A stretch of DNA of 12,330 nt, from the UHGV virus genome UHGV-0317858. One strand, 5' to 3'. The notes beneath the pieces are model-generated. The model was not told where the DNA came from and did not search any database. It was given only the letters and a program-made list of their open reading frames with translations. The stretch comes from a virus. Made by a program: the position numbers and the translations under genes. Below, one piece after another: positions 2,191-12,330 of this stretch. Position 1 is the stretch's first letter; the number at the start of each line of letters is the position of its first letter.

Positions 2191-2985
2191 ATGAGCGAGA
2201 AATTAAAGATAGTCTATCGCCCATTACAAGAATTGTCACCGTATGCGCACAACGCCAGGACGCACAGTACTGAGCAGGTGGCACAACTGGTAGAAAGTAT
2301 TAAGCTATTCGGCTGGACTAATCCGGTGCTGATTGACGAAAAGGGCGAAATTATTGCGGGTCACGGTCGTGTTATGGCGGCTGAAATGCTCAAAATGGAT
2401 TCTGTTCCGGTCATTGTTCTGTCTGGCCTGACGGATGAGCAGAAAAAGGCGTACCGCCTGGCAGATAATCGCCTGCCGATGAATGCTGGCTGGGATGAAG
2501 ATCTGTTGCGGATGGAGCTGTCGGACCTAATCAATGCTGATTTTGATGTCTCCCTGACAGGCTTCATCCCGACAGAAATTGATGAACTGTTGACGGATGT
2601 TTTGCCCGGTACAGGAAATGAGGAGGAGCCGTATACGACGAAAATTGATACGCCTGTTTATGAGCCGTCGGGCGGTAAACCGGATATCAGTGAACTGTAC
2701 GACGATACGAAAACTCAGGAGCTGATCAGCCGGATACGTTCGGCGTCCCTTGATCCTGATATTGAGAAATTCCTCCTGTGTGCGGCAGAACGTCACACAG
2801 TGTTTAATTTCAGCAGAATTGCGGACTATTACGCTCATGCCCCCGCTGAAATTCAGTGCCTTTTCGAGGAGTCGGCGCTGGTGATCATTGATTATCAGCA
2901 GGCTATTGAAAATGGATTTGTCCGAATGACGCAGCGCATGGTGGAGATCATGCATGGCGGGGAGGAGGAGGAGGAATATGCGTGA
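2191..2985 (+). CDS. ParB/Srx-like N-terminal domain protein (ParB-like nuclease or DNA-binding fold) with an acidic C-terminal region of unknown function ending in poly-Glu
   Basis: 264 aa. The N-terminal 90 residues (YRPLQELSPYAHNARTHSTEQVAQLVESIKLFGWTNPVLIDEKGEIIAGHGRVMAAEMLKMDSVPVIVL...AYRLADNRL) carry the hallmarks of the ParB N-terminal/sulfiredoxin fold (hydrophobic strand, then G-H-x-R, then AA). The C-terminal region has no motif I recognise. The gene ends ...[11 protein letters not shown] and its stop overlaps the next start. Confidence 0.75.
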   Translation: MSEKLKIVYRPLQELSPYAHNARTHSTEQVAQLVESIKLFGWTNPVLIDEKGEIIAGHGRVMAAEMLKMDSVPVIVLSGLTDEQKKAYRLADNRLPMNAGWDEDLLRMELSDLINADFDVSLTGFIPTEIDELLTDVLPGTGNEEEPYTTKIDTPVYEPSGGKPDISELYDDTKTQELISRIRSASLDPDIEKFLLCAAERHTVFNFSRIADYYAHAPAEIQCLFEESALVIIDYQQAIENGFVRMTQRMVEIMHGGEEEEEYA

Positions 2986-3712
2986 TGATTTTTGCGCCTT
3001 TATTCTGACTCACGGGCGACCGGACAAAGTTCTGACTTACCGGACGTTGCGTCGTGCTGGCTATACCGGGAAAATTTTTATCGTTGTTGATGATGAAGAT
3101 AAGACACGGCATCAGTACATGGCTGAATTTGGTGAACAGGTGCTGGTATTTTCCAAAGCCGATATTGCCAGTCGTTTTGACGAAGCCGATAATTTTGGTG
3201 ATCGCCGCTCAATTTTTTACGCCCGTAATGCCTGTTTCGACCTGGCAAAACTGGTCGGGTGTAAATACTTCATTCAGCTCGATGATGATTATCACGAGTT
3301 CCAGTTTCGGGTGGATCGCAACTATGACCAGGCCTATTTCCCGATAAGGAAACTGGATGCGATCCTTTCTGAAATGCTGGCGTATTACGAATCAATACCC
3401 GCGCTTTCCATCGCTATGTCGCAGGGCGGGGATTTTCTTGGTGACAATGGCGGCCATGCTTCGTGGGTGAAACGCAAGGCAATGAACAGCTTTATCTGTT
3501 CGGTTGATCGACCGTTCTCATTCATGGGGCGCATTAACGAGGATGTGAATACGTACACGAATCTCGGTCGCTGTGGTGAATTGTTTATGACGATCGGTGC
3601 TGTCCAGTTAGGGCAGAAACAGACGCAGAAAAACAGCGGCGGAATGACCGAGCTGTATCTGGATTCCGGAACCTGCCGCCGCGCCCGTTCAATATCCGGA
3701 TGCGCAGGATGA
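2978..3712 (+). CDS. GT-A-fold (family 2-like) glycosyltransferase-like protein, probably C-terminally disrupted at the junction with J-derived DNA
   Basis: From ATG 2978 ([43 protein letters not shown]...[13 protein letters not shown]...) the spacing and composition fit the GT-A signature: N-terminal beta-strand, then hydrophobic-VVDD-x-D at residues 36-41, then a DxD motif (DDD at residues 102-104) about 60 residues later, as in SpsA-type enzymes. The GGAGGAGGAGGAGGAA run just upstream of ATG 2978 serves as the Shine-Dalgarno; the ORF-track start at 2954 lacks one. The last 13 or so codons appear to be J-gene DNA read out of frame. Confidence 0.55.
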
Positions 3713-6639
3713 CGCCGGACAGCACCACAGACCAGCTGCAGAACAAAACGCTCTGGTCGTCATACACCGAAATCATCGATGTGAAACAGTGCTACCCGAA
3801 CACGGCACTGGTCGGCGTACAGGTGGATTCGGAGCAGTTCGGCAGCCAGCAGGTGAGCCGTAATTATCATCTGCGCGGGCGTATTCTGCAGGTGCCGTCG
3901 AACTATAACCCGCAGACTCGGCAATACAGCGGTATCTGGGACGGAACGTTTAAGCCAGCATACAGCAATAACATGGCCTGGTGTCTGTGGGATATGCTGA
4001 CCCATCCACGCTACGGCATGGGGAAACGTCTTGGTGCGGCGGATGTGGACAAATGGGCGCTGTATGTCATCGGCCAGTACTGCGACCAGTCAGTGCCGGA
4101 CGGCTTTGGCGGCACGGAGCCGCGCATCACCTGTAATGCGTACCTGACCACACAGCGCAAGGCGTGGGATGTGCTCAGTGATTTCTGCTCGGCGATGCGC
4201 TGTATGCCGGTATGGAACGGGCAGACGCTGACGTTCGTGCAGGACCGACCGTCGGATAAGGTGTGGACCTATAACCGCAGTAATGTGGTGATGCCGGATG
4301 ATGGCGCGCCGTTCCGCTACAGCTTCAGCGCCCTGAAAGACCGCCATAATGCCGTTGAGGTGAACTGGATTGACCCGAACAACGGCTGGGAGACGGCGAC
4401 AGAGCTTGTTGAAGATACGCAGGCCATTGCCCGTTACGGTCGTAATGTTACGAAGATGGATGCCTTTGGCTGTACCAGCCGGGGGCAGGCACACCGCGCC
4501 GGGCTGTGGCTGATTAAAACGGAGCTGCTGGAGACGCAGACCGTGGATTTCAGCGTCGGCGCAGAAGGGCTTCGCCATGTACCGGGCGATGTTATTGAAA
4601 TCTGCGATGATGACTATGCCGGTATCAGCACCGGTGGTCGTGTGCTGGCGGTGAACAGCCAGACCCGGACGCTGACGCTCGACCGTGAAATCACGCTGCC
4701 ATCCTCCGGTACCACGCTGATAAGCCTGGTTGACGGAAGTGGCAATCCGGTCAGCGTGGAGGTTCAGTCCGTCACCGACGGCGTGAAGGTAAAAGTGAGC
4801 CGTGTTCCTGAGGGTGTTGCTGAATACAGCGTATGGGGGCTGAAGCTGCCGACGCTGCGCCAGCGCCTGTTCCGCTGCGTGAGTATCCGTGAGAACGACG
4901 ACGGCACGTATGCCATCACCGCCGTGCAGCATGTGCCGGAAAAAGAGGCCATCGTGGATAACGGGGCGCACTTTGACGGCGAACAGAGTGGCACGGTGAA
5001 TGGTGTCACGCCGCCAGCGGTGCAGCACCTGACCGCAGAAGTCACTGCAGACAGCGGGGAATATCAGGTGCTGGCGCGATGGGACACACCGAAGGTGGTG
5101 AAGGGCGTGAGCTTTATGCTTCGCCTGACCGTGGCAGCGGACGACGGCAGTGAGCGGCTGGTCAGCACGGCCCGGACGACAGAAACCACATACCGCTTCA
5201 GGCAGCTGGCGCTGGGGAACTACAGGCTGACAGTCCGGGCGGTAAATGCGTGGGGGCAGCAGGGCGATCCGGCATCGGTATCGTTCCGGATTGCCGCACC
5301 TGCAGTGCCGTCGCGGATTGAGCTGACGCCGGGCTATTTTCAGATAACCGCCACGCCGCATCTTGCCGTTTATGACCCGACGGTACAGTTTGAGTTCTGG
5401 TTCTCGGAAAAGCGGATTACCGATATCAGGCAGGTTGAAACCACAGCCCGCTATCTTGGCACGGCGCTGTACTGGATAGCCGCCAGTATCAATATCAAAC
5501 CGGGCCATGATTATTATTTTTACGTTCGCAGTGTGAACACCGTTGGCAAATCGGCATTCGTGGAGGCTGTTGGTCAGCCGAGTGATGATGCATCCGGCTA
5601 TCTGGATTTTTTCAAAGGCGAGATAGGGAAAACCCATCTGGCTCAGGAGCTGTGGACGCAGATTGATAACGGTCAGCTTGCGCCTGACCTGGCTGAAATC
5701 AGGACGTCCATTACGGATGTCAGCAATGAAATCACGCAGACCGTCAATAAGAAACTGGAAGACCAGAGTGCGGCAATTCAGCAGATACAGAAGGTTCAGG
5801 TTGATACAAATAATAACCTGAACAGCATGTGGGCTGTGAAGCTGCAGCAGATGCAGGACGGACGCCTTTATATCGCGGGTATTGGTGCCGGTATTGAGAA
5901 CACCCCTGACGGCATGCAGAGTCAGGTGCTGCTGGCGGCGGACAGGATTGCGATGGTTAATCCTGCGAATGGCAACACAAAACCGATGTTTGTTGGTCAG
6001 GGCGATCAGATATTCATGAACGACGTGTTCCTGAAACGCCTGACGGCCCCCACCATTACCAGCGGTGGAAATCCACCGGCATTTTCCCTGACACCGGACG
6101 GAAAGCTGACTGCTAAAAATGCGGATATCAGTGGCAGTGTGAATGCGAACTCCGGGACGCTCAACAACGTCACGATTAATGAGAACTGTCAGATTAAGGG
6201 GAAACTGTCAGCCAATCAGATTGAAGGCGATATTGTCAAAACAGTGGGTAAGGCTTTCCCGCGGGACTCCCGGGCACCGGAGCGGTGGCCATCAGGGACC
6301 ATTACCGTCAGGATTTATGACGATCAGCCTTTTGACAGGCAAATTGTTATTCCAGCGGTGGCATTCTGCGGCGCTAAACATGAGCGGGAGAATAACGATA
6401 TTTATTCGTCATGCCGCCTGATAGTGAAGAAAAATGGTGCTGAAATTTATAACCGTACCGCGCTGGATAATACGCTGATTTACAGTGGTGTTATTGATAT
6501 GCCAGCTGGTCACGGCCACATGACGCTGGAGTTTTCGGTGTCAGCATGGCTGGTAAATGACTGGTATCCCACAGCAAGTATCAGCGATTTGCTGGTTGTG
6601 GTGATGAAGAAAGCCACCGCAGGCATCAGTATCAGCTGA
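3700..6639 (+). CDS. J: Tail tip attachment / host specificity protein J, N-terminally truncated remnant (C-terminal roughly 980 residues)
   Basis: The translation ([76 protein letters not shown]...) matches lambda gpJ from an internal position as I recall it, including the C-terminal receptor-binding region, which here diverges from lambda. The frame is open only back to a stop at 3577-3579 and no N-terminal J sequence is present. ATG 3700 is an internal Met, so expression as an independent protein is uncertain and the locus may be annotated as a pseudogene. Confidence 0.85.
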
Positions 6640-7370: not shown

Positions 7371-10300
7371 ATGGCAGTACGGATTTCAGGTGTACTGAAA
7401 GATGGCGCAGGTAAGCCGATACAAAACTGCACCATTCAGCTAAAGGCCAGGCGCAACAGCACCACGGTGGTGGTGAACACAGTGGCCTCAGAAAACCCGG
7501 ATGAAGCCGGGCGTTACACAATGGACGTCGAGTATGGTCAGTACAGCGTCAGTCTGTTGGTGGAGGGATTCCCGCCGTCACACGCCGGGATTATCACCGT
7601 ATATGAGGACTCAAAGCCGGGCACACTGAATGATTTCCTCGGTGCAATGACGGAGGATGATGTCCGGCCAGAGGCACTGCGCCGTTTTGAACTGATGGTG
7701 GAAGAGGTGGCGCGTAACGCGTCCGCAGTGGCACAGAACACGGCAGCCGCGAAGAAGTCAGCCGGCGATGCCGGCACATCTGCCCGTGAGGCGGCAACCC
7801 ATGCGACTGATGCTGCAGGCTCAGCACGCGCAGCCAGCACGTCAGCCGGACAGGCCGCTTCGTCGGCTCAGTCAGCGTCTTCCAGCGCAGGAACGGCATC
7901 AGCAAAGGCCACTGAAGCATCAAAAAGTGCTGCCGCTGCAGAGTCCTCAAAAAGCGCGGCGGCCACCAGTGCCGCTGCGGCAAAAACGTCAGAAACGAAT
8001 GCGGCAGCGTCACAACAATCAGCAGCCACTTCAGCATCCACCGCGACCACGAAAGCGTCAGAAGCTGCCACCTCAGCCCGGGATGCGTCGGCTTCAAAAG
8101 AGGCGGCAAAATCATCAGAAACGAGCGCAGCCTCGAGCGCCAGCAGCGCAGCTTCCTCGGCAACGGCGACAGCAAATTCTGCGAAGGCGGCAAAAACGTC
8201 CGAGACGAACGCCAAGGCTTCTGAAACGGCAGCGGGACAGAGTGCCTCAGCTGCGGCAGGCTCAAAAACAGCGGCTGCGTCGTCTGCCAGTGCCGCGTCA
8301 ACAAGTGCCGGGCAGGCCTCAGCCAGTGCCACCGCCGCCGGAAAATCGGCAGAAAGTGCTGCATCGTCCGCTTCAACAGCCACAACGAAGGCTGGCGAAG
8401 CCGCTGTACAGGCCAGCGCAGCAGCGAGGTCTGCTTCCGCAGCGAAGACATCCGAAACGAATGCGAAAGCGTCGGAAACCCGTGCAGAATCCTCAAAAAC
8501 GGCAGCCGCATCGTCCGCCAGTTCGGCAGCGTCATCGGCATCATCTGCGTCTGCTTCAAAAGATGAGGCGACCAGACAGGCGTCAGCAGCGAAGGGCAGC
8601 GCCACGACGGCATCCACGAAAGCAACAGAGGCGGCAGGCAGTGCGACGGCAGCATCTCAGAGCAAAACTGCTGCTGAATCCGCTGCGACCCGTGCGGAAG
8701 CTGCTGCTGATCGTGCTGAAGAGATTGCCGGTGCAGTTGCGATGGAAGACGCAAGCCTTACAACTAAAGGTGTTGTGAAACTTAGCAGTGCTGTTGATAG
8801 CACCAGTGAATCGCTGGCCGCAACGCCAAAAGCAGTTAAAGCAGCCAATGACAATGCGAATAGCAGGGTGCCATCTAACCGAAAAGTTAACGGAAAAGCA
8901 CTGACTGCGGATATAACATTAACGCCGAAAGATATTGGTACTTTAAATTCAGTAACGATGTCTTTCTCTGGCGGGGCTGGGTGGTTCAAACTGGCTACGG
9001 TTACCATGCCACAAGCGAGTTCCATCGTTTACATCGCATTGATTGGTGGCGCTGGTTACAACGTCGGTTCCCCACATCAGGCAGGCATTTCAGAACTGGT
9101 TCTACGAGCAGGCAATGGAAACCCCAAAGGAATTACCGGGGCTTTGTGGAAGCGTACAGCCGTCGGATTAACGAATTTCGCCTGGATCAACACATCCGGC
9201 GATACATATGATATTTACGTTGAGATTGGCAATTATGCGACTCGTGTAAATATCCATTGGGATTGTACTGCAAATGCGACAGTTTCTATTTATACATCGC
9301 CAACATATTCAGCGAGTAAGCCTTCCAGCGTTACCGATGGTGTTGTTTATACGATGTATAGCACACATCAGAAACCGACGCCGTTAGATATTGGAGCACT
9401 GCCAACAACCGGAGGAACAGTTTCAGGTCCGTTGTCTGTTACAGGTGGATTAACTGGTTCATTGAATGGTAATGCAAGTACAGCCACGAAATTGCAGACG
9501 GCAAGATCTATCGGTGGAGTTGTTTTCGACGGTTCTGCAAATATTAACCTTCCAGGTGTAAACACTACGGGTAATCAGAACACCACTGGTAATGCTGCAA
9601 CTGCTACAAAACTTCAGACTGCAAGAAAAATATCCGGTGTTCCATTTGATGGTTCTACTGATATCACTTTAACCGCCGCGCATGTGGCTGCTTTTGCCAG
9701 AAGAGCAACGGATGCGTATGCCGATGCGGATGGGGGCGTTCCATGGAATGCCGAATCAGGCGCTTACAATGTCACCCGCTCTGGCGACAGCTATATTCTG
9801 GTTAACTTCTATACCGGAGTCGGAAGTTGCCGGACCTTGCAGATGAAGGCGCATTACAGAAATGGTGGTCTGTTCTACCGTTCTTCAAGAGACGGTTATG
9901 GTTTTGAAAGTGGTTGGGCGCAGCTTTACACCTCGGCTCATCCTCCTGCAGAGTTTTATCCAGTCGGTGCACCAATCCCGTGGCCATCAGATACCGTTCC
10001 GTCTGGTTATGCCCTGATGCAGGGGCAGACTTTTGACAAATCTGCCTACCCGAAACTTGCTGCCGCTTATCCGTCAGGCGTGATCCCTGATATGCGTGGC
10101 TGGACGATTAAGGGCAAACCTGCCAGTGGTCGTGCCGTATTGTCTCAGGAACAGGACGGCATTAAATCGCACACCCACAGCGCCAGCGCATCCAGTACGG
10201 ATTTGGGGACGAAAACCACATCGTCGTTTGATTACGGCACTAAATCCACGAATAACACCGGGGCGCATACGCACAGTCTGAGTGGCTCTACGGGGTCTGC

Positions 10301-10661
10301 CGGTGCTCATACTCATGGTAATGGTATTCGTTGGCCAGGAGGCGGCGGTTCTGCGTTAGCATTTTATGATGGCGGTGGGTTCACTTATGTCAAGGATTCA
10401 CAGTATCAAGTAAGCCCGGGGACTTCTTCCAGTAGATCGTATTATCAACGTATTCAGACACAGTCAGCAGGTGCTCATACCCACTCGCTGTCTGGTACTG
10501 CAGCAAGTTCTGGCGCACATGCACATACTGTAGGTATTGGTGCGCATACGCACTCGGTTGCGATTGGCTCACATGGACACACCATCACCGTTAACGCTGC
10601 TGGTAACGCGGAAAACACCGTCAAAAACATCGCATTTAACTATATTGTGAGGCTTGCATAA
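7371..10661 (+). CDS. stfR: Side tail fibre protein (lambda Stf-like N-terminus, Ala/Ser-rich quasi-repeat shaft, His-rich C-terminal receptor-binding domain)
   Basis: 1096 aa. The N-terminus ([49 protein letters not shown]...) matches lambda/Rac Stf. A long low-complexity A/S/T/K/E region follows. The C-terminal part carries a duplicated ATKLQTAR...FDGS motif and multiple H-x-H motifs (GAHTHS). The stop TAA overlaps the tfa start (TAATG). Confidence 0.9.
7700..8760 (+). repeat. Imperfect tandem coding repeats specifying the Ala/Ser-rich fibrous shaft of Stf
   Basis: Recurring peptide units such as [24 protein letters not shown] and [26 protein letters not shown] appear several times. The region is stop-free in several frames on both strands, which produces the spurious ORFs at 7768-8778 (+), 7594-8754 (-) and 7868-8617 (-). 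Confidence 0.6.
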
Positions 10662-11245
10662 TGACATTCAGAATGAGTGAACAACCACGGACCATAAAAA
10701 TTTATAATCTGCTGGCCGGAACTAATGAATTTATTGGTGAAGGTGACGCATATATTCCGCCTCATACAGGTCTGCCTGCAAACAGTACCGATATTGCACC
10801 GCCAGATATTCCGGCAGGCTTCGTGGCTGTTTTCAACAGTGATGAGGCATCGTGGCATCTCGTTGAAGACCATCGTGGTAAAACGGTCTATGACGTGGCT
10901 TCCGGCGACGCGTTATTTATTTCTGAACTCGGCTCATTACCGGAAAATGTCACCTGGTTATCCCCGGAAGGGGAGTTTCAGAAGTGGAACGGTACAGTCT
11001 GGGTGAAGGATACGGAAGCAGAAAAACTGTTCCGGATCCGGGAGGCGGAAGAAACAAAAAACAGCCTGATGCAGGTAGCCAGTGAGCATATAGCGCCGCT
11101 TCAGGATGCTGTAGATCTGGAGATCGCAACGGAAGAAGAGGCGTCGTTGCTGGAAGCCTGGAAGAAGTATCGGGTATTGCTGAACCGTGTTGATACATCA
11201 ACTGCACCTGATATTGAGTGGCCTGCAAATCCTGTCAGGGAGTAA
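10661..11245 (+). CDS. tfaR: Tail fibre assembly protein (Tfa chaperone)
   Basis: 194 aa ([54 protein letters not shown]...[19 protein letters not shown]), near-identical to lambda Tfa as I recall it. The start overlaps the stf stop. Confidence 0.9.
11081..11200 (+). repeat. Direct repeat copy 1 (the 3-prime end of tfa), about 87% identical to 12130-12249
   Basis: Hand alignment of the two 120-nt segments gives about 15 mismatches with no gaps. Both encode [19 protein letters not shown][20 protein letters not shown]. Confidence 0.7.
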
Positions 11246-11258
11246 TCATTGGGATTAT

Positions 11259-11293
11259 GCCGCAGCACGTCGTGCGCAAGAACGTGCTGCGGC
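11259..11293. terminator. Perfect 11-bp inverted repeat hairpin between the convergent tfa and methyltransferase genes; candidate bidirectional terminator
   Basis: GCCGCAGCACG (11259-11269) and CGTGCTGCGGC (11283-11293) are exact reverse complements with a 13-nt loop, and a T-run follows at 11303-11308. The T-run also overlaps the minus-strand gene end, so terminator function is plausible but not certain. Confidence 0.45.
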
Positions 11294-11299
11294 TGGATG

Positions 11300-11968
11300 C
11301 TATTTTTTCCCTGAAGCGGAAAACATTACTACAGTACCTTTAATCTTGGTTTTAACATTCTCGAAATGCTCTGAGAGTATATGTGTTAAGCCTTCTTCGG
11401 AATCTTTTGTGTTTGAAAAGATGCCTTTTTGATTGTAAATGCGCATCAGTTTTTGACCGAAGCTATTGTGCACAACGCCGTCACCAAGAATTGTGGCTCC
11501 GTATAGAGTTCCATCGTCAGTTAAGGCCTGCGCCGCATTGCGTATTACACAGCTTTTTGTAGATATATTTCCAGGCAGGCAGTGAAGAAGGTAAAACATG
11601 GAAATGGAATCAAATTGACCATGTAACGCCGCGGGATAAGGTTCAAAAACATCATGGCTAATTTTATGTTTAATTTTTGATTCCCCAGCCCTTGTAGATG
11701 CCGCGTTCAGGCTAGTTTCGTTCAAATCCATTAAAGATATCAGACTACTCTCAGGTACGTGAGTAAGGTAAAACCCAGTTCCAACACCAATATCCAGATG
11801 GTTGTTACCTAAATGTTCCAGAAAGTGTGGAAGGAGGTGTTCCTTTGTAGGACATCCCCATGCAAGCCGATTTGATACTCCCAAAACCCACCAGTCATAA
11901 AGCTTTAGGGTAAGTGGTGTGTAAATTTTAGCCCCATCATCTGTGTTTTTTTTCATTAATTTCACCAT
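11300..11968 (-). CDS. Class I (Rossmann-fold) SAM-dependent methyltransferase of unknown substrate; AT-rich cargo gene
   Basis: 222 aa with a canonical motif I (HLDIGVGTGFY), an acidic residue closing beta-2 (LISLMDLNE), a motif II-like segment (FDSISMFYLLHCL) and a motif III-like segment (LTDDGTLYGATI). No DPPY/NPPY or other DNA-methyltransferase target-recognition motifs. Visibly AT-rich relative to the neighbouring tail genes, with a weak RBS. Confidence 0.6.
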   Translation of the reverse strand: MVKLMKKNTDDGAKIYTPLTLKLYDWWVLGVSNRLAWGCPTKEHLLPHFLEHLGNNHLDIGVGTGFYLTHVPESSLISLMDLNETSLNAASTRAGESKIKHKISHDVFEPYPAALHGQFDSISMFYLLHCLPGNISTKSCVIRNAAQALTDDGTLYGATILGDGVVHNSFGQKLMRIYNQKGIFSNTKDSEEGLTHILSEHFENVKTKIKGTVVMFSASGKK

Positions 11969-12024
11969 GTTATAGTTTTATTTGTGAATTAAATCAATTA
12001 TGGCGATGAATTACAAGGGGTTAA

Positions 12025-12330
12025 ATGCTGCCGCAGCATAGCGATATTGAAATAGCCTGGTATGCTTCGATACAGCAGGAGCCGAATGGCTGGAAGACCG
12101 TCATCATACAGTTCTACATCCAGGAGTTCAGTGAGTATATTGCGCCACTGCAGGATGCTGTAGATCTGGAAATCGCAACGGAGGAAGAAAGATCGTTGCT
12201 GGAGGCATGGAATAAATATCGGGTATTGCTGAATCGTGTTGATACATCAGTAGCTCTGGGTATGAAGCTGATTGTAACTCATGTTACAGTAACGGTCATT
12301 GCTATCTCGAAGGTGCAAAATGTATATTGA
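12025..12330 (+). pseudogene. Chimeric ORF carrying a Tfa C-terminal domain signature (probable tail fibre assembly gene remnant)
   Basis: 101 aa. The central segment ([38 protein letters not shown]) is a Tfa C-terminal domain, but the N-terminal 35 residues and the last 26 residues ([26 protein letters not shown]) do not resemble Tfa. The stop coincides with the window end, so downstream context cannot be seen. Confidence 0.4.
12130..12249 (+). repeat. Direct repeat copy 2 (tfa 3-prime end homologue inside a chimeric ORF)
   Basis: See copy 1; same orientation, about 1.05 kb downstream. Confidence 0.7.

Follow-up and report, generated by a model that had tools for sequence, protein, structure and literature searches.

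An intact copy of ybcY, predicted to encode a small SAM-dependent methyltransferase, at the tail-fibre end of a Rac-like prophage

Introduction

The closest described counterpart of the gene treated here is ybcY (b0562) of Escherichia coli K-12, a pseudogene in the DLP12 prophage that lies between the tail fibre assembly genes tfaD and tfaX and is followed by appY and ompT. RefSeq names proteins of this kind 'class I SAM-dependent methyltransferase' (e.g. WP_134236106.1), and they are grouped in PHROG 2132, a family annotated as of unknown function. Here we analysed an intact copy of the gene on the minus strand of a 12,330-nucleotide stretch of virus genome UHGV-0317858, hereafter the window. 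An initial annotation had described its product, the translation of an ATG-initiated open reading frame (ORF) at positions 11300..11968 (222 amino acids), as a stand-alone S-adenosylmethionine (SAM)-dependent methyltransferase carried as prophage cargo, more likely acting on a small molecule, a protein or RNA than on DNA.

Two characterised enzymes recur in the comparisons below. Juvenile hormone acid methyltransferase (JHAMT) holds the carboxyl group of its substrate with a catalytic histidine (PMC8526772), and the R-type phospholipid N-methyltransferase PmtA has conserved residues Tyr10, Ser120 and His147, with a representative, Rt-PmtA, of isoelectric point (pI) 10.7 that binds membranes through arginines (PMC11446283). 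On balance, we read the single-domain YbcY protein as self-contained cargo at the tail-fibre end of a Rac-like prophage, with a proposed role on a lipophilic metabolite.

The window gene is an intact ybcY

Sequence comparison identified the methyltransferase gene of the window as an intact copy of ybcY, a gene that is already named and annotated. The protein matched PHROG 2132 with E = 3e-155, its residues 5-222 falling on positions 1-218 of the 218-position profile, and a 781-bp region was 100% identical to an E. coli 789 gene annotated as 'class I SAM-dependent methyltransferase'. The tfaD-ybcY-tfaX segment of K-12 shared 95% nucleotide identity with the window over 1448 bp, including the 3′ end of tfaD and tfaX, and the tfa-ybcY-tfa′ arrangement was common to both. 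The two copies differ in that the K-12 gene is a pseudogene within DLP12, whereas the window gene is intact and lies in a Rac-like prophage carrying trkG. The K-12 allele bears a 2-bp deletion (TTAATGAAAAAAAAC to TTAATAAAAAAAC) that loses the start codon of Met5 (M5) and shifts the frame, and the same pseudogene was found in K-12 (locus L008, 5153-5807) and in two more sampled strains (L019 and L020). Phase variation at the run of eight A residues (A8) after the start codon was considered and rejected: all eight intact copies compared had A8, and the K-12-type deletion removes the G of the ATG, which is not simple slippage.

The true start of the gene is probably not the first ATG of the ORF. 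All 40 homologues in one alignment (A1) begin at M5 and lack the residues MVKL that precede it, and the match to the PHROG profile likewise starts at residue 5. By direct reading, a Shine-Dalgarno-like GGTGA lies 5 nt 5′ of the in-frame ATG at 11956, and no Shine-Dalgarno sequence stands in front of the upstream ATG at 11968. The −10 hexamer of a promoter-like sequence, moreover, ends at 11969 and abuts that first ATG. Because the homologues, the profile, the GGTGA sequence and the position of the −10 hexamer agree, we consider translation from M5 probable, which gives a YbcY-family class I SAM-dependent methyltransferase of 218 amino acids at 11300..11956 on the minus strand, with a TAG stop at 11300-11302. 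The four additional in-frame codons at 11957..11968 (minus strand), which are included in the RefSeq start, are probably not translated. The intactness of the ORF described in the initial annotation was thus upheld, with its length probably to be revised from 222 to 218 residues.

A single-domain class I methyltransferase

The protein contains a complete Rossmann SAM-binding core, as had been proposed. Motif I, LDIGVGTGFY, occupies residues 58-67 (DIGVGTG, 59-65), with G61 and G65 invariant in 40 diverse members, and the acidic residue after β-2 is D81 in MDLNE, invariant across the broad family; HDVF is found at residues 105-108 and FDSISMFYLLHCLPG at 119-133. The Pfam model Methyltransf_12 scored 36.6 bits against a gathering cut-off of 30, and Methyltransf_23, _25 and _11 likewise exceeded their gathering cut-offs, making four models altogether. 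An AlphaFold model built from 41 homologues (mean pLDDT 91.4, pTM 0.88) showed seven strands alternating with helices in one compact domain. These results confirmed that the protein is a class I Rossmann-fold SAM-dependent methyltransferase.

The search for catalytic motifs of DNA methyltransferases was negative, in agreement with the reported absence of DPPY/NPPY-type motifs. A regular expression for [DNS]PP[YFWH] found no match in the protein, which has no PP dipeptide anywhere, and neither the PCQ motif nor its variant PC[QH], typical of C5-cytosine methylases, was present; a lone ENV at residues 204-206 lies on the β-6 strand near the C-terminus of the model. On these motifs the protein was confirmed to be neither a DNA amino- nor a C5-methyltransferase. 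The predicted structure contained no extra target-recognition domain either, the whole protein of 218-222 amino acids forming one domain, as the initial annotation had supposed.

Conservation across an alignment of 40 bacterial and fungal members (A3) defined a family signature. Invariant positions were Y24, W37, G61, G65, D81, S121, H129, K138, G157, N186 and D189, and Y16, D25, C39, H57, C130, T159, Y178, N179 and F184 were conserved in at least 90% of members. The signature Y24-D25, W37-x-C39, HLDxGxGTG, D81, S121, H129-C130-L-P-G, K138 and G157-x-T159 is complete in the window protein, as are its remaining residues, Y178-N179 and F184-x-N186-x-x-D189.

A cargo cassette between tail fibre assembly genes

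The methyltransferase gene is monocistronic and runs opposite to the late genes encoding the tail fibre (Stf) and its assembly protein (Tfa). On its 3′ side it converges with a tfa gene on the plus strand (10661..11245; Pfam Caudo_TAP, 5.5e-45), and on its 5′ side it diverges from a plus-strand tfa fragment (12025..12330), the counterpart of K-12 tfaX, in which Caudo_TAP is matched over residues 32-77 only and whose counterpart in E. coli 789 is annotated as a partial tfa pseudogene. A direct repeat of 167 nt derived from the tfa 3′ end (D1) brackets the cassette, with a left copy at 11069..11235 and a right copy at 12118..12284, both on the plus strand, which are 78% identical and spaced 1049 nt apart. 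This arrangement suggests recombination between tfa genes as the way in which the cassette moves. The GC content across the cassette was 0.40-0.43 (about 41%), against about 0.50 upstream.

Directly 5′ of the gene, at 11969..11997 on the minus strand, lies a σ70 promoter-like sequence, TTGATT-17-TATAAC, found as a single exact match with none expected in 200 shuffles. An identical hexamer pair was assigned to ybcY, together with an H-NS site, in a genomic SELEX (systematic evolution of ligands by exponential enrichment) study of RpoD in K-12 (PMC3946193), and across the promoter stretch K-12 and the window do not differ. The SELEX data report in-vitro binding in another strain (K-12), and we predict that the same element serves here as ybcY's own promoter, at which the gene may be silenced by H-NS. 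An alternative promoter-like sequence at 11997..12024 (minus strand), TTAACC-16-CATAAT, matched the consensus at 9 of 12 positions in a scan and was not above chance (4 sites in the region versus 2.6 expected).

Between the convergent tfa and methyltransferase genes, a GC-rich hairpin with a 13-bp stem (11262..11296, assigned to neither strand) starts 4 nt 3′ of the methyltransferase stop codon. Its stability of −28.8 kcal/mol (z = −4.2) was reached by none of 200 shuffled sequences. The minus, coding strand has no U-run, the plus strand has a T-run 9 nt after the hairpin, and a terminator scan made no call; the hairpin probably serves both genes as a terminator or stabilises RNA. A GC-rich motif (GCCGCAGCA / TGCTGCGGC) recurs in inverted orientation on either side of the methyltransferase gene, at 11285-11298 and 12025-12038. 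One copy lies inside this hairpin and the other, where the tfa fragment begins, forms the near-palindrome ATGCTGCCGCAGCAT; the pair may mark the cassette boundary. We also noted a match of 221.7 bits to the Rfam family IS009 (RF02111, a predicted E. coli small RNA candidate) at 11004-11202 on the plus strand. It lies wholly inside the 3′ coding part of tfa, and this 'RNA family' may be no more than a model of tfa fragments.

The gene is monocistronic, has its own promoter motif and low GC, is bracketed by tfa repeats and lies on the opposite strand; these features fit a cargo gene (a 'moron') that was acquired horizontally and is transcribed independently.

Occurrence in E. coli and its phages

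Of 5426 complete E. coli genomes, 3836 (71%) carried ybcY, some in as many as four copies. Wherever a sampled E. coli record contained the gene, tail-fibre-assembly genes flanked it, and many E. coli tfa loci were without it. In addition, 14 full-length lambdoid phage records (ev243, 2G7b, the PhiR series, Kati and Turner) encoded the protein at about 98% identity, with the gene placed between the tail-fibre genes and an α/β-hydrolase-ompT-int segment. Both observations bear out the assignment as prophage cargo, and the tfa-flanked position in the sampled records differs from the conserved chromosomal context that would be expected of a housekeeping enzyme.

In E. coli 789 (locus L001, 16264-17748), the next cargo gene, about 0.5 kb past the methyltransferase gene, encodes an α/β hydrolase of 494 amino acids with Abhydrolase_1 and TAP-like domains. 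This hydrolase belongs to PHROG 20134 (function unknown), matches the PADLOC defence-candidate model PDLC01094 'C3a206' with E = 9e-55, and is followed by ompT. The order methyltransferase-tfa′-hydrolase-ompT-int was also seen in phage ev243 (L002). Among metagenome-assembled genomes, contigs labelled Bacillus sp. and Planococcaceae (L015 and L025) had the E. coli prophage gene at 99% identity and are probably contamination of those bins.

Relatives in other bacteria and in fungi

A scan of one genome per species identified 527 stretches encoding a relative of YbcY. The best 80 of these 527 showed at least 50% identity and came from Enterobacterales, Pseudomonas, Xanthomonas, Dyella, Pasteurellaceae, Proteus, Photorhabdus and Noviherbaspirillum. 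An exhaustive profile search (E ≤ 1e-30) gave 418 clusters at 50% identity, nearly all of single-domain proteins of 215-240 amino acids. When domain fusions were sought as a clue to function, longer members proved to have N-terminal extensions without Pfam domains or to be eukaryotic gene models, and the one fusion, to RCC1, was from a lichen fungus.

STM1638 of Salmonella Typhimurium and the homologues of Enterobacter, Erwinia, Yersinia, Pseudomonas and further genera share 50-75% full-length identity and the same conserved motifs with the window protein. Their genes differ from the window copy in standing alone on the chromosome, outside prophages, in a neighbourhood that varies by genus. 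Clustering of neighbours at 72 loci found no partner conserved across genera and synteny within genera only. STM1638 lies between a gene for a PMT_2 protein and rydC/cybB, and the literature mentions it only as the gene flanking the small RNA gene rydC. It stands (L003, about 8001-8663) directly 5′ of rydC on the same strand. The RydC small RNA is an activator of cyclopropane fatty acid synthase, itself a lipid methyltransferase that depends on SAM, and the adjacency is possibly a coincidence.

Gene GC equalled host GC in Pseudomonas and Erwinia and was well below that of the flanks in E. coli, Klebsiella, Providencia, Morganella and Hafnia. This contrast in composition points to long residence in the former two genera and to recent acquisition in the latter five. 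Taken together, carriage by phages is not an intrinsic trait of the YbcY family.

Relatives of about 50% identity were also found in fungi, including Fusarium, Aspergillus, Elaphomyces, Endocarpon, Atractiella and others. Of five fungal loci sampled, four (L094, L095, L096 and L098) had a highly reducing polyketide synthase (PKS) gene at most 4 kb from the methyltransferase gene, and the fifth was not beside a PKS. The PKS loci also hold thioesterase, acyl-CoA ligase, cytochrome P450 or carboxylesterase genes. Two gene orders recurred: in Fusarium and Immersiella it was P450, 4HBT thioesterase, (carboxylesterase), methyltransferase, P450, PKS, and in Aspergillus melleus it was PKS, acyl-CoA ligase, methyltransferase; in A. 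terreus the PKS directly adjoins the methyltransferase, with a ligase about 8 kb to the other side.

This distribution bears on whether YbcY directly serves the phage, as a DNA methylase or anti-restriction enzyme, an anti-defence enzyme or a tail-fibre modifier. The constant position beside tfa in sampled E. coli and the carriage by functional lambdoid phages would suit such a role. The flanking tfa sequences are, however, duplicated recombination joints rather than functional partners, and the gene runs against the strand of the late operon. The protein lacks the DPPY/NPPY and PCQ motifs, and a PADLOC search gave no significant match (best mad2, E = 0.003). The relatives on non-prophage chromosomes of Salmonella, Enterobacter, Erwinia, Yersinia and Pseudomonas, and in fungi, argue against a virion, DNA or defence substrate, and we regard direct phage service as highly unlikely. 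Of the host or phage components that had been suggested as substrates, a tail fibre and an anti-defence target are disfavoured.

Comparison with characterised methyltransferases

We found no orthology to a housekeeping methyltransferase. No NCBIfam model reached its cut-off with the window protein: the best, CpaM, RquA, PmtA, BioC, UbiE and UbiG, scored 13-17 bits against cut-offs of 160-390, the highest score being 17.1 bits versus a cut-off of 180. Across 41 family members the same six lipid, quinone or acyl enzymes were the closest curated families, with a family-wide best E of about 1e-7. The cut-offs for UbiE, UbiG, BioC and CmoA/CmoM were not reached, and TehB and Tam were not among the NCBIfam families listed. 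UbiG, UbiE, BioC, RquA and CpaM thus have the class I fold in common with YbcY and are weakly matched by most members, but YbcY scores far below their cut-offs and shares no pathway context with them. Remote-homology and structure comparison, as the initial annotation had recommended, placed small-molecule and lipid methyltransferases nearest (PmtA, DhpI, JHAMT and UbiG), to none of which YbcY could be assigned. The best profile match in the Protein Data Bank (PDB) was JHAMT (E = 1.4e-5), followed by UbiG; Foldseek ranked PmtA first and JHAMT second, and the viral structure library BFVD returned generic methyltransferase folds only. On these results YbcY could be assigned to none of the characterised methyltransferase families tested.

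JHAMT (PDB 7ebs and 7ec0) acts on a lipophilic substrate, and its catalytic His114/115 aligns with H129, which is invariant in the YbcY family. The likeness is confined to about 100 alignable core residues, the TM-score is only about 0.5, and JHAMT is a larger, insect enzyme of about 270-290 amino acids.

The R-type PmtA (PDB 8ys9) raises the possibility that YbcY is a PmtA-like phospholipid N-methyltransferase, in which case lysogens would make methylated phosphatidylethanolamine or phosphatidylcholine. The top structural match is similar to YbcY in length and has, like it, a conserved Tyr in an N-terminal lid helix; 35 of 41 family members weakly matched the Legionella-type PmtA model, and classical lipid work in K-12, which has only the pseudogene, would have missed such an activity. 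Sequence identity is 14-16%, however, and hhalign (probability 92%) aligned the SAM core only, over YbcY residues 56-159, leaving the lipid-binding N- and C-terminal parts unaligned. At the conserved PmtA positions, Ser120 corresponds to His129 and His147 to Ile160 in YbcY, and Y16 is present in a region that the profile leaves unaligned. The window protein scored 15.9 bits with the Legionella-type model (NF045882) against a cut-off of 390, and with a neutral pI of 7.2 it lacks the arginine-rich membrane-binding surface of PmtA, although a range of 5.5-10.1 makes pI uninformative on membrane association for the YbcY family as a whole. A PmtA-like activity therefore appears very improbable.

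Methylation of a macromolecule (transfer RNA, ribosomal RNA or protein), which would alter host translation or a phage or host protein, was weighed in the same way. Between 5 and 10 of the 41 members weakly matched the NCBIfam models RsmC and PrmC. Against this, a single domain of 218 amino acids has no RNA-binding or recognition domain, the closest sequence and structure matches are small-molecule enzymes, the fungal relatives sit inside secondary-metabolite clusters, and a patchy accessory distribution would be unusual for a modifier of the translation machinery. We consider a macromolecular substrate improbable, and of the three substrate classes originally proposed, small molecules are favoured, with protein and RNA disfavoured by the family distribution and by the nearest profiles.

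Proposed function

We are fairly confident that YbcY is a small-molecule methyltransferase carried as cargo. Chromosomal relatives in Proteobacteria and fungi disfavour phage-specific substrates such as the tail fibre and favour a small metabolite over protein or RNA. Its substrate class we assign only tentatively, to lipophilic acids or hydroxyl compounds. In the mechanism that we propose, YbcY would be active in the cytoplasm of the host or on the inner side of its membrane, with SAM held in the Rossmann cleft. The substrate pocket would be formed by an N-terminal helical lid (Y16, Y24-D25, W37, C39), the loop after β-4 (Y126, H129, C130) and a C-terminal helix-loop (Y178-N179, F184, N186, D189). 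This pocket would take a lipophilic small molecule, and the methyl group would go to oxygen or nitrogen. The most plausible target would be an oxygen, acidic or hydroxyl, on a compound resembling a fatty acid or a polyketide, with H129 in the part of the catalytic histidine of carboxyl methyltransferases. The lysogen could then benefit through a modified or detoxified metabolite or xenobiotic, rather than through modification of DNA or the virion.

Several observations weigh against this proposal. A histidine at the position of H129 is common in Methyltransf_11-type proteins and hence weak evidence for carboxyl chemistry, and the Gln of the JHAMT Gln/His pair falls outside the alignable region, N33 being a possible counterpart in YbcY. 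The PKS context in fungi may reflect a derived function. In the literature on ybcY, STM1638 and prophage methyltransferases we found no functional study and no substrate for any family member, and in the lysogen the gene may be silenced by H-NS. A conserved esterase partner in bacteria was also sought and rejected: a Pfam census of two genes on each side found α/β hydrolases in 2 of 150 unique neighbour families, with nothing enriched. Genes for α/β hydrolases do adjoin that of the methyltransferase in Erwinia, in Enterobacter and in the E. coli prophage, and Yersinia has a GDSL lipase nearby, but these belong to unrelated families.

The host prophage

The window also encodes Rz, TrkG, a ParB-like protein, a TET-associated glycosyltransferase (TAGT), a truncated J, Lom, Stf and Tfa. 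None of the complete E. coli genomes covered as much as 80% of the window. The ParB_N-domain protein, a counterpart of YnaK (2191-2985), is followed by the TAGT domain protein (2954-3712; Pfam E = 5.6e-35), which belongs to a family tied to phage DNA hypermodification and lies next to trkG in this Rac-like prophage. The tail-tip protein J (3700-6639; 979 amino acids) is N-terminally truncated, beginning at position 99 of the 126-position FNIII-A profile, and its ORF overlaps the end of the TAGT ORF. This truncation and overlap imply that the head genes and most tail genes were deleted between the lysis/trkG region and J. The prophage is thus defective, Rac-like and lambdoid, and the methyltransferase ORF is nevertheless intact. 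The central part of stfR (7594-8778) is an Ala/Ser/Thr-rich region of low complexity, in which spurious ORFs of up to 386 amino acids occur in other frames and on the opposite strand.

In such a prophage the gene might be an inert passenger, a decaying remnant that is functionless in E. coli. The pseudogenes with the 2-bp deletion in K-12 and the two other sampled strains and the H-NS site overlapping the K-12 promoter region would be in keeping with this. The ORF is, however, intact here and in most copies: in clusters at 90% identity, the full-length cluster holds 6589 sequences, against 445 and 30 in the main truncated ones. Complete E. coli genomes retain the gene in 71% of cases, and an identity of about 50% between fungi and bacteria reflects strong conservation. 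An inert passenger accordingly seems quite improbable, and we retain the reading of YbcY as a cargo enzyme acting on a small molecule.

Implications

The gene is already catalogued, as ybcY in K-12, as a class I SAM-dependent methyltransferase in RefSeq and as PHROG 2132, and it does not represent a new kind of system. Our analysis places it among the most widespread cargo genes of E. coli prophages, often in multiple copies and, at several loci that we examined, linked to ompT. Laboratory K-12 strains are without the YbcY enzyme, whereas most natural isolates have an intact copy, and work in K-12 could not have revealed its activity because the copy there is broken. The identity of about 50% to genes of fungal polyketide clusters provides a testable lead on the substrate class. 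A bolder reading, which we put forward as unlikely, is that the YbcY family constitutes a still-unrecognised type of methyltransferase for lipophilic acids or lipid-like molecules, common to Proteobacteria and fungal polyketide clusters. If this were true, most natural E. coli would make a methylated metabolite, such as a methyl ester of the fatty-acid type, a modified lipid or a signal, that has been overlooked because K-12 has only a frameshifted pseudogene.

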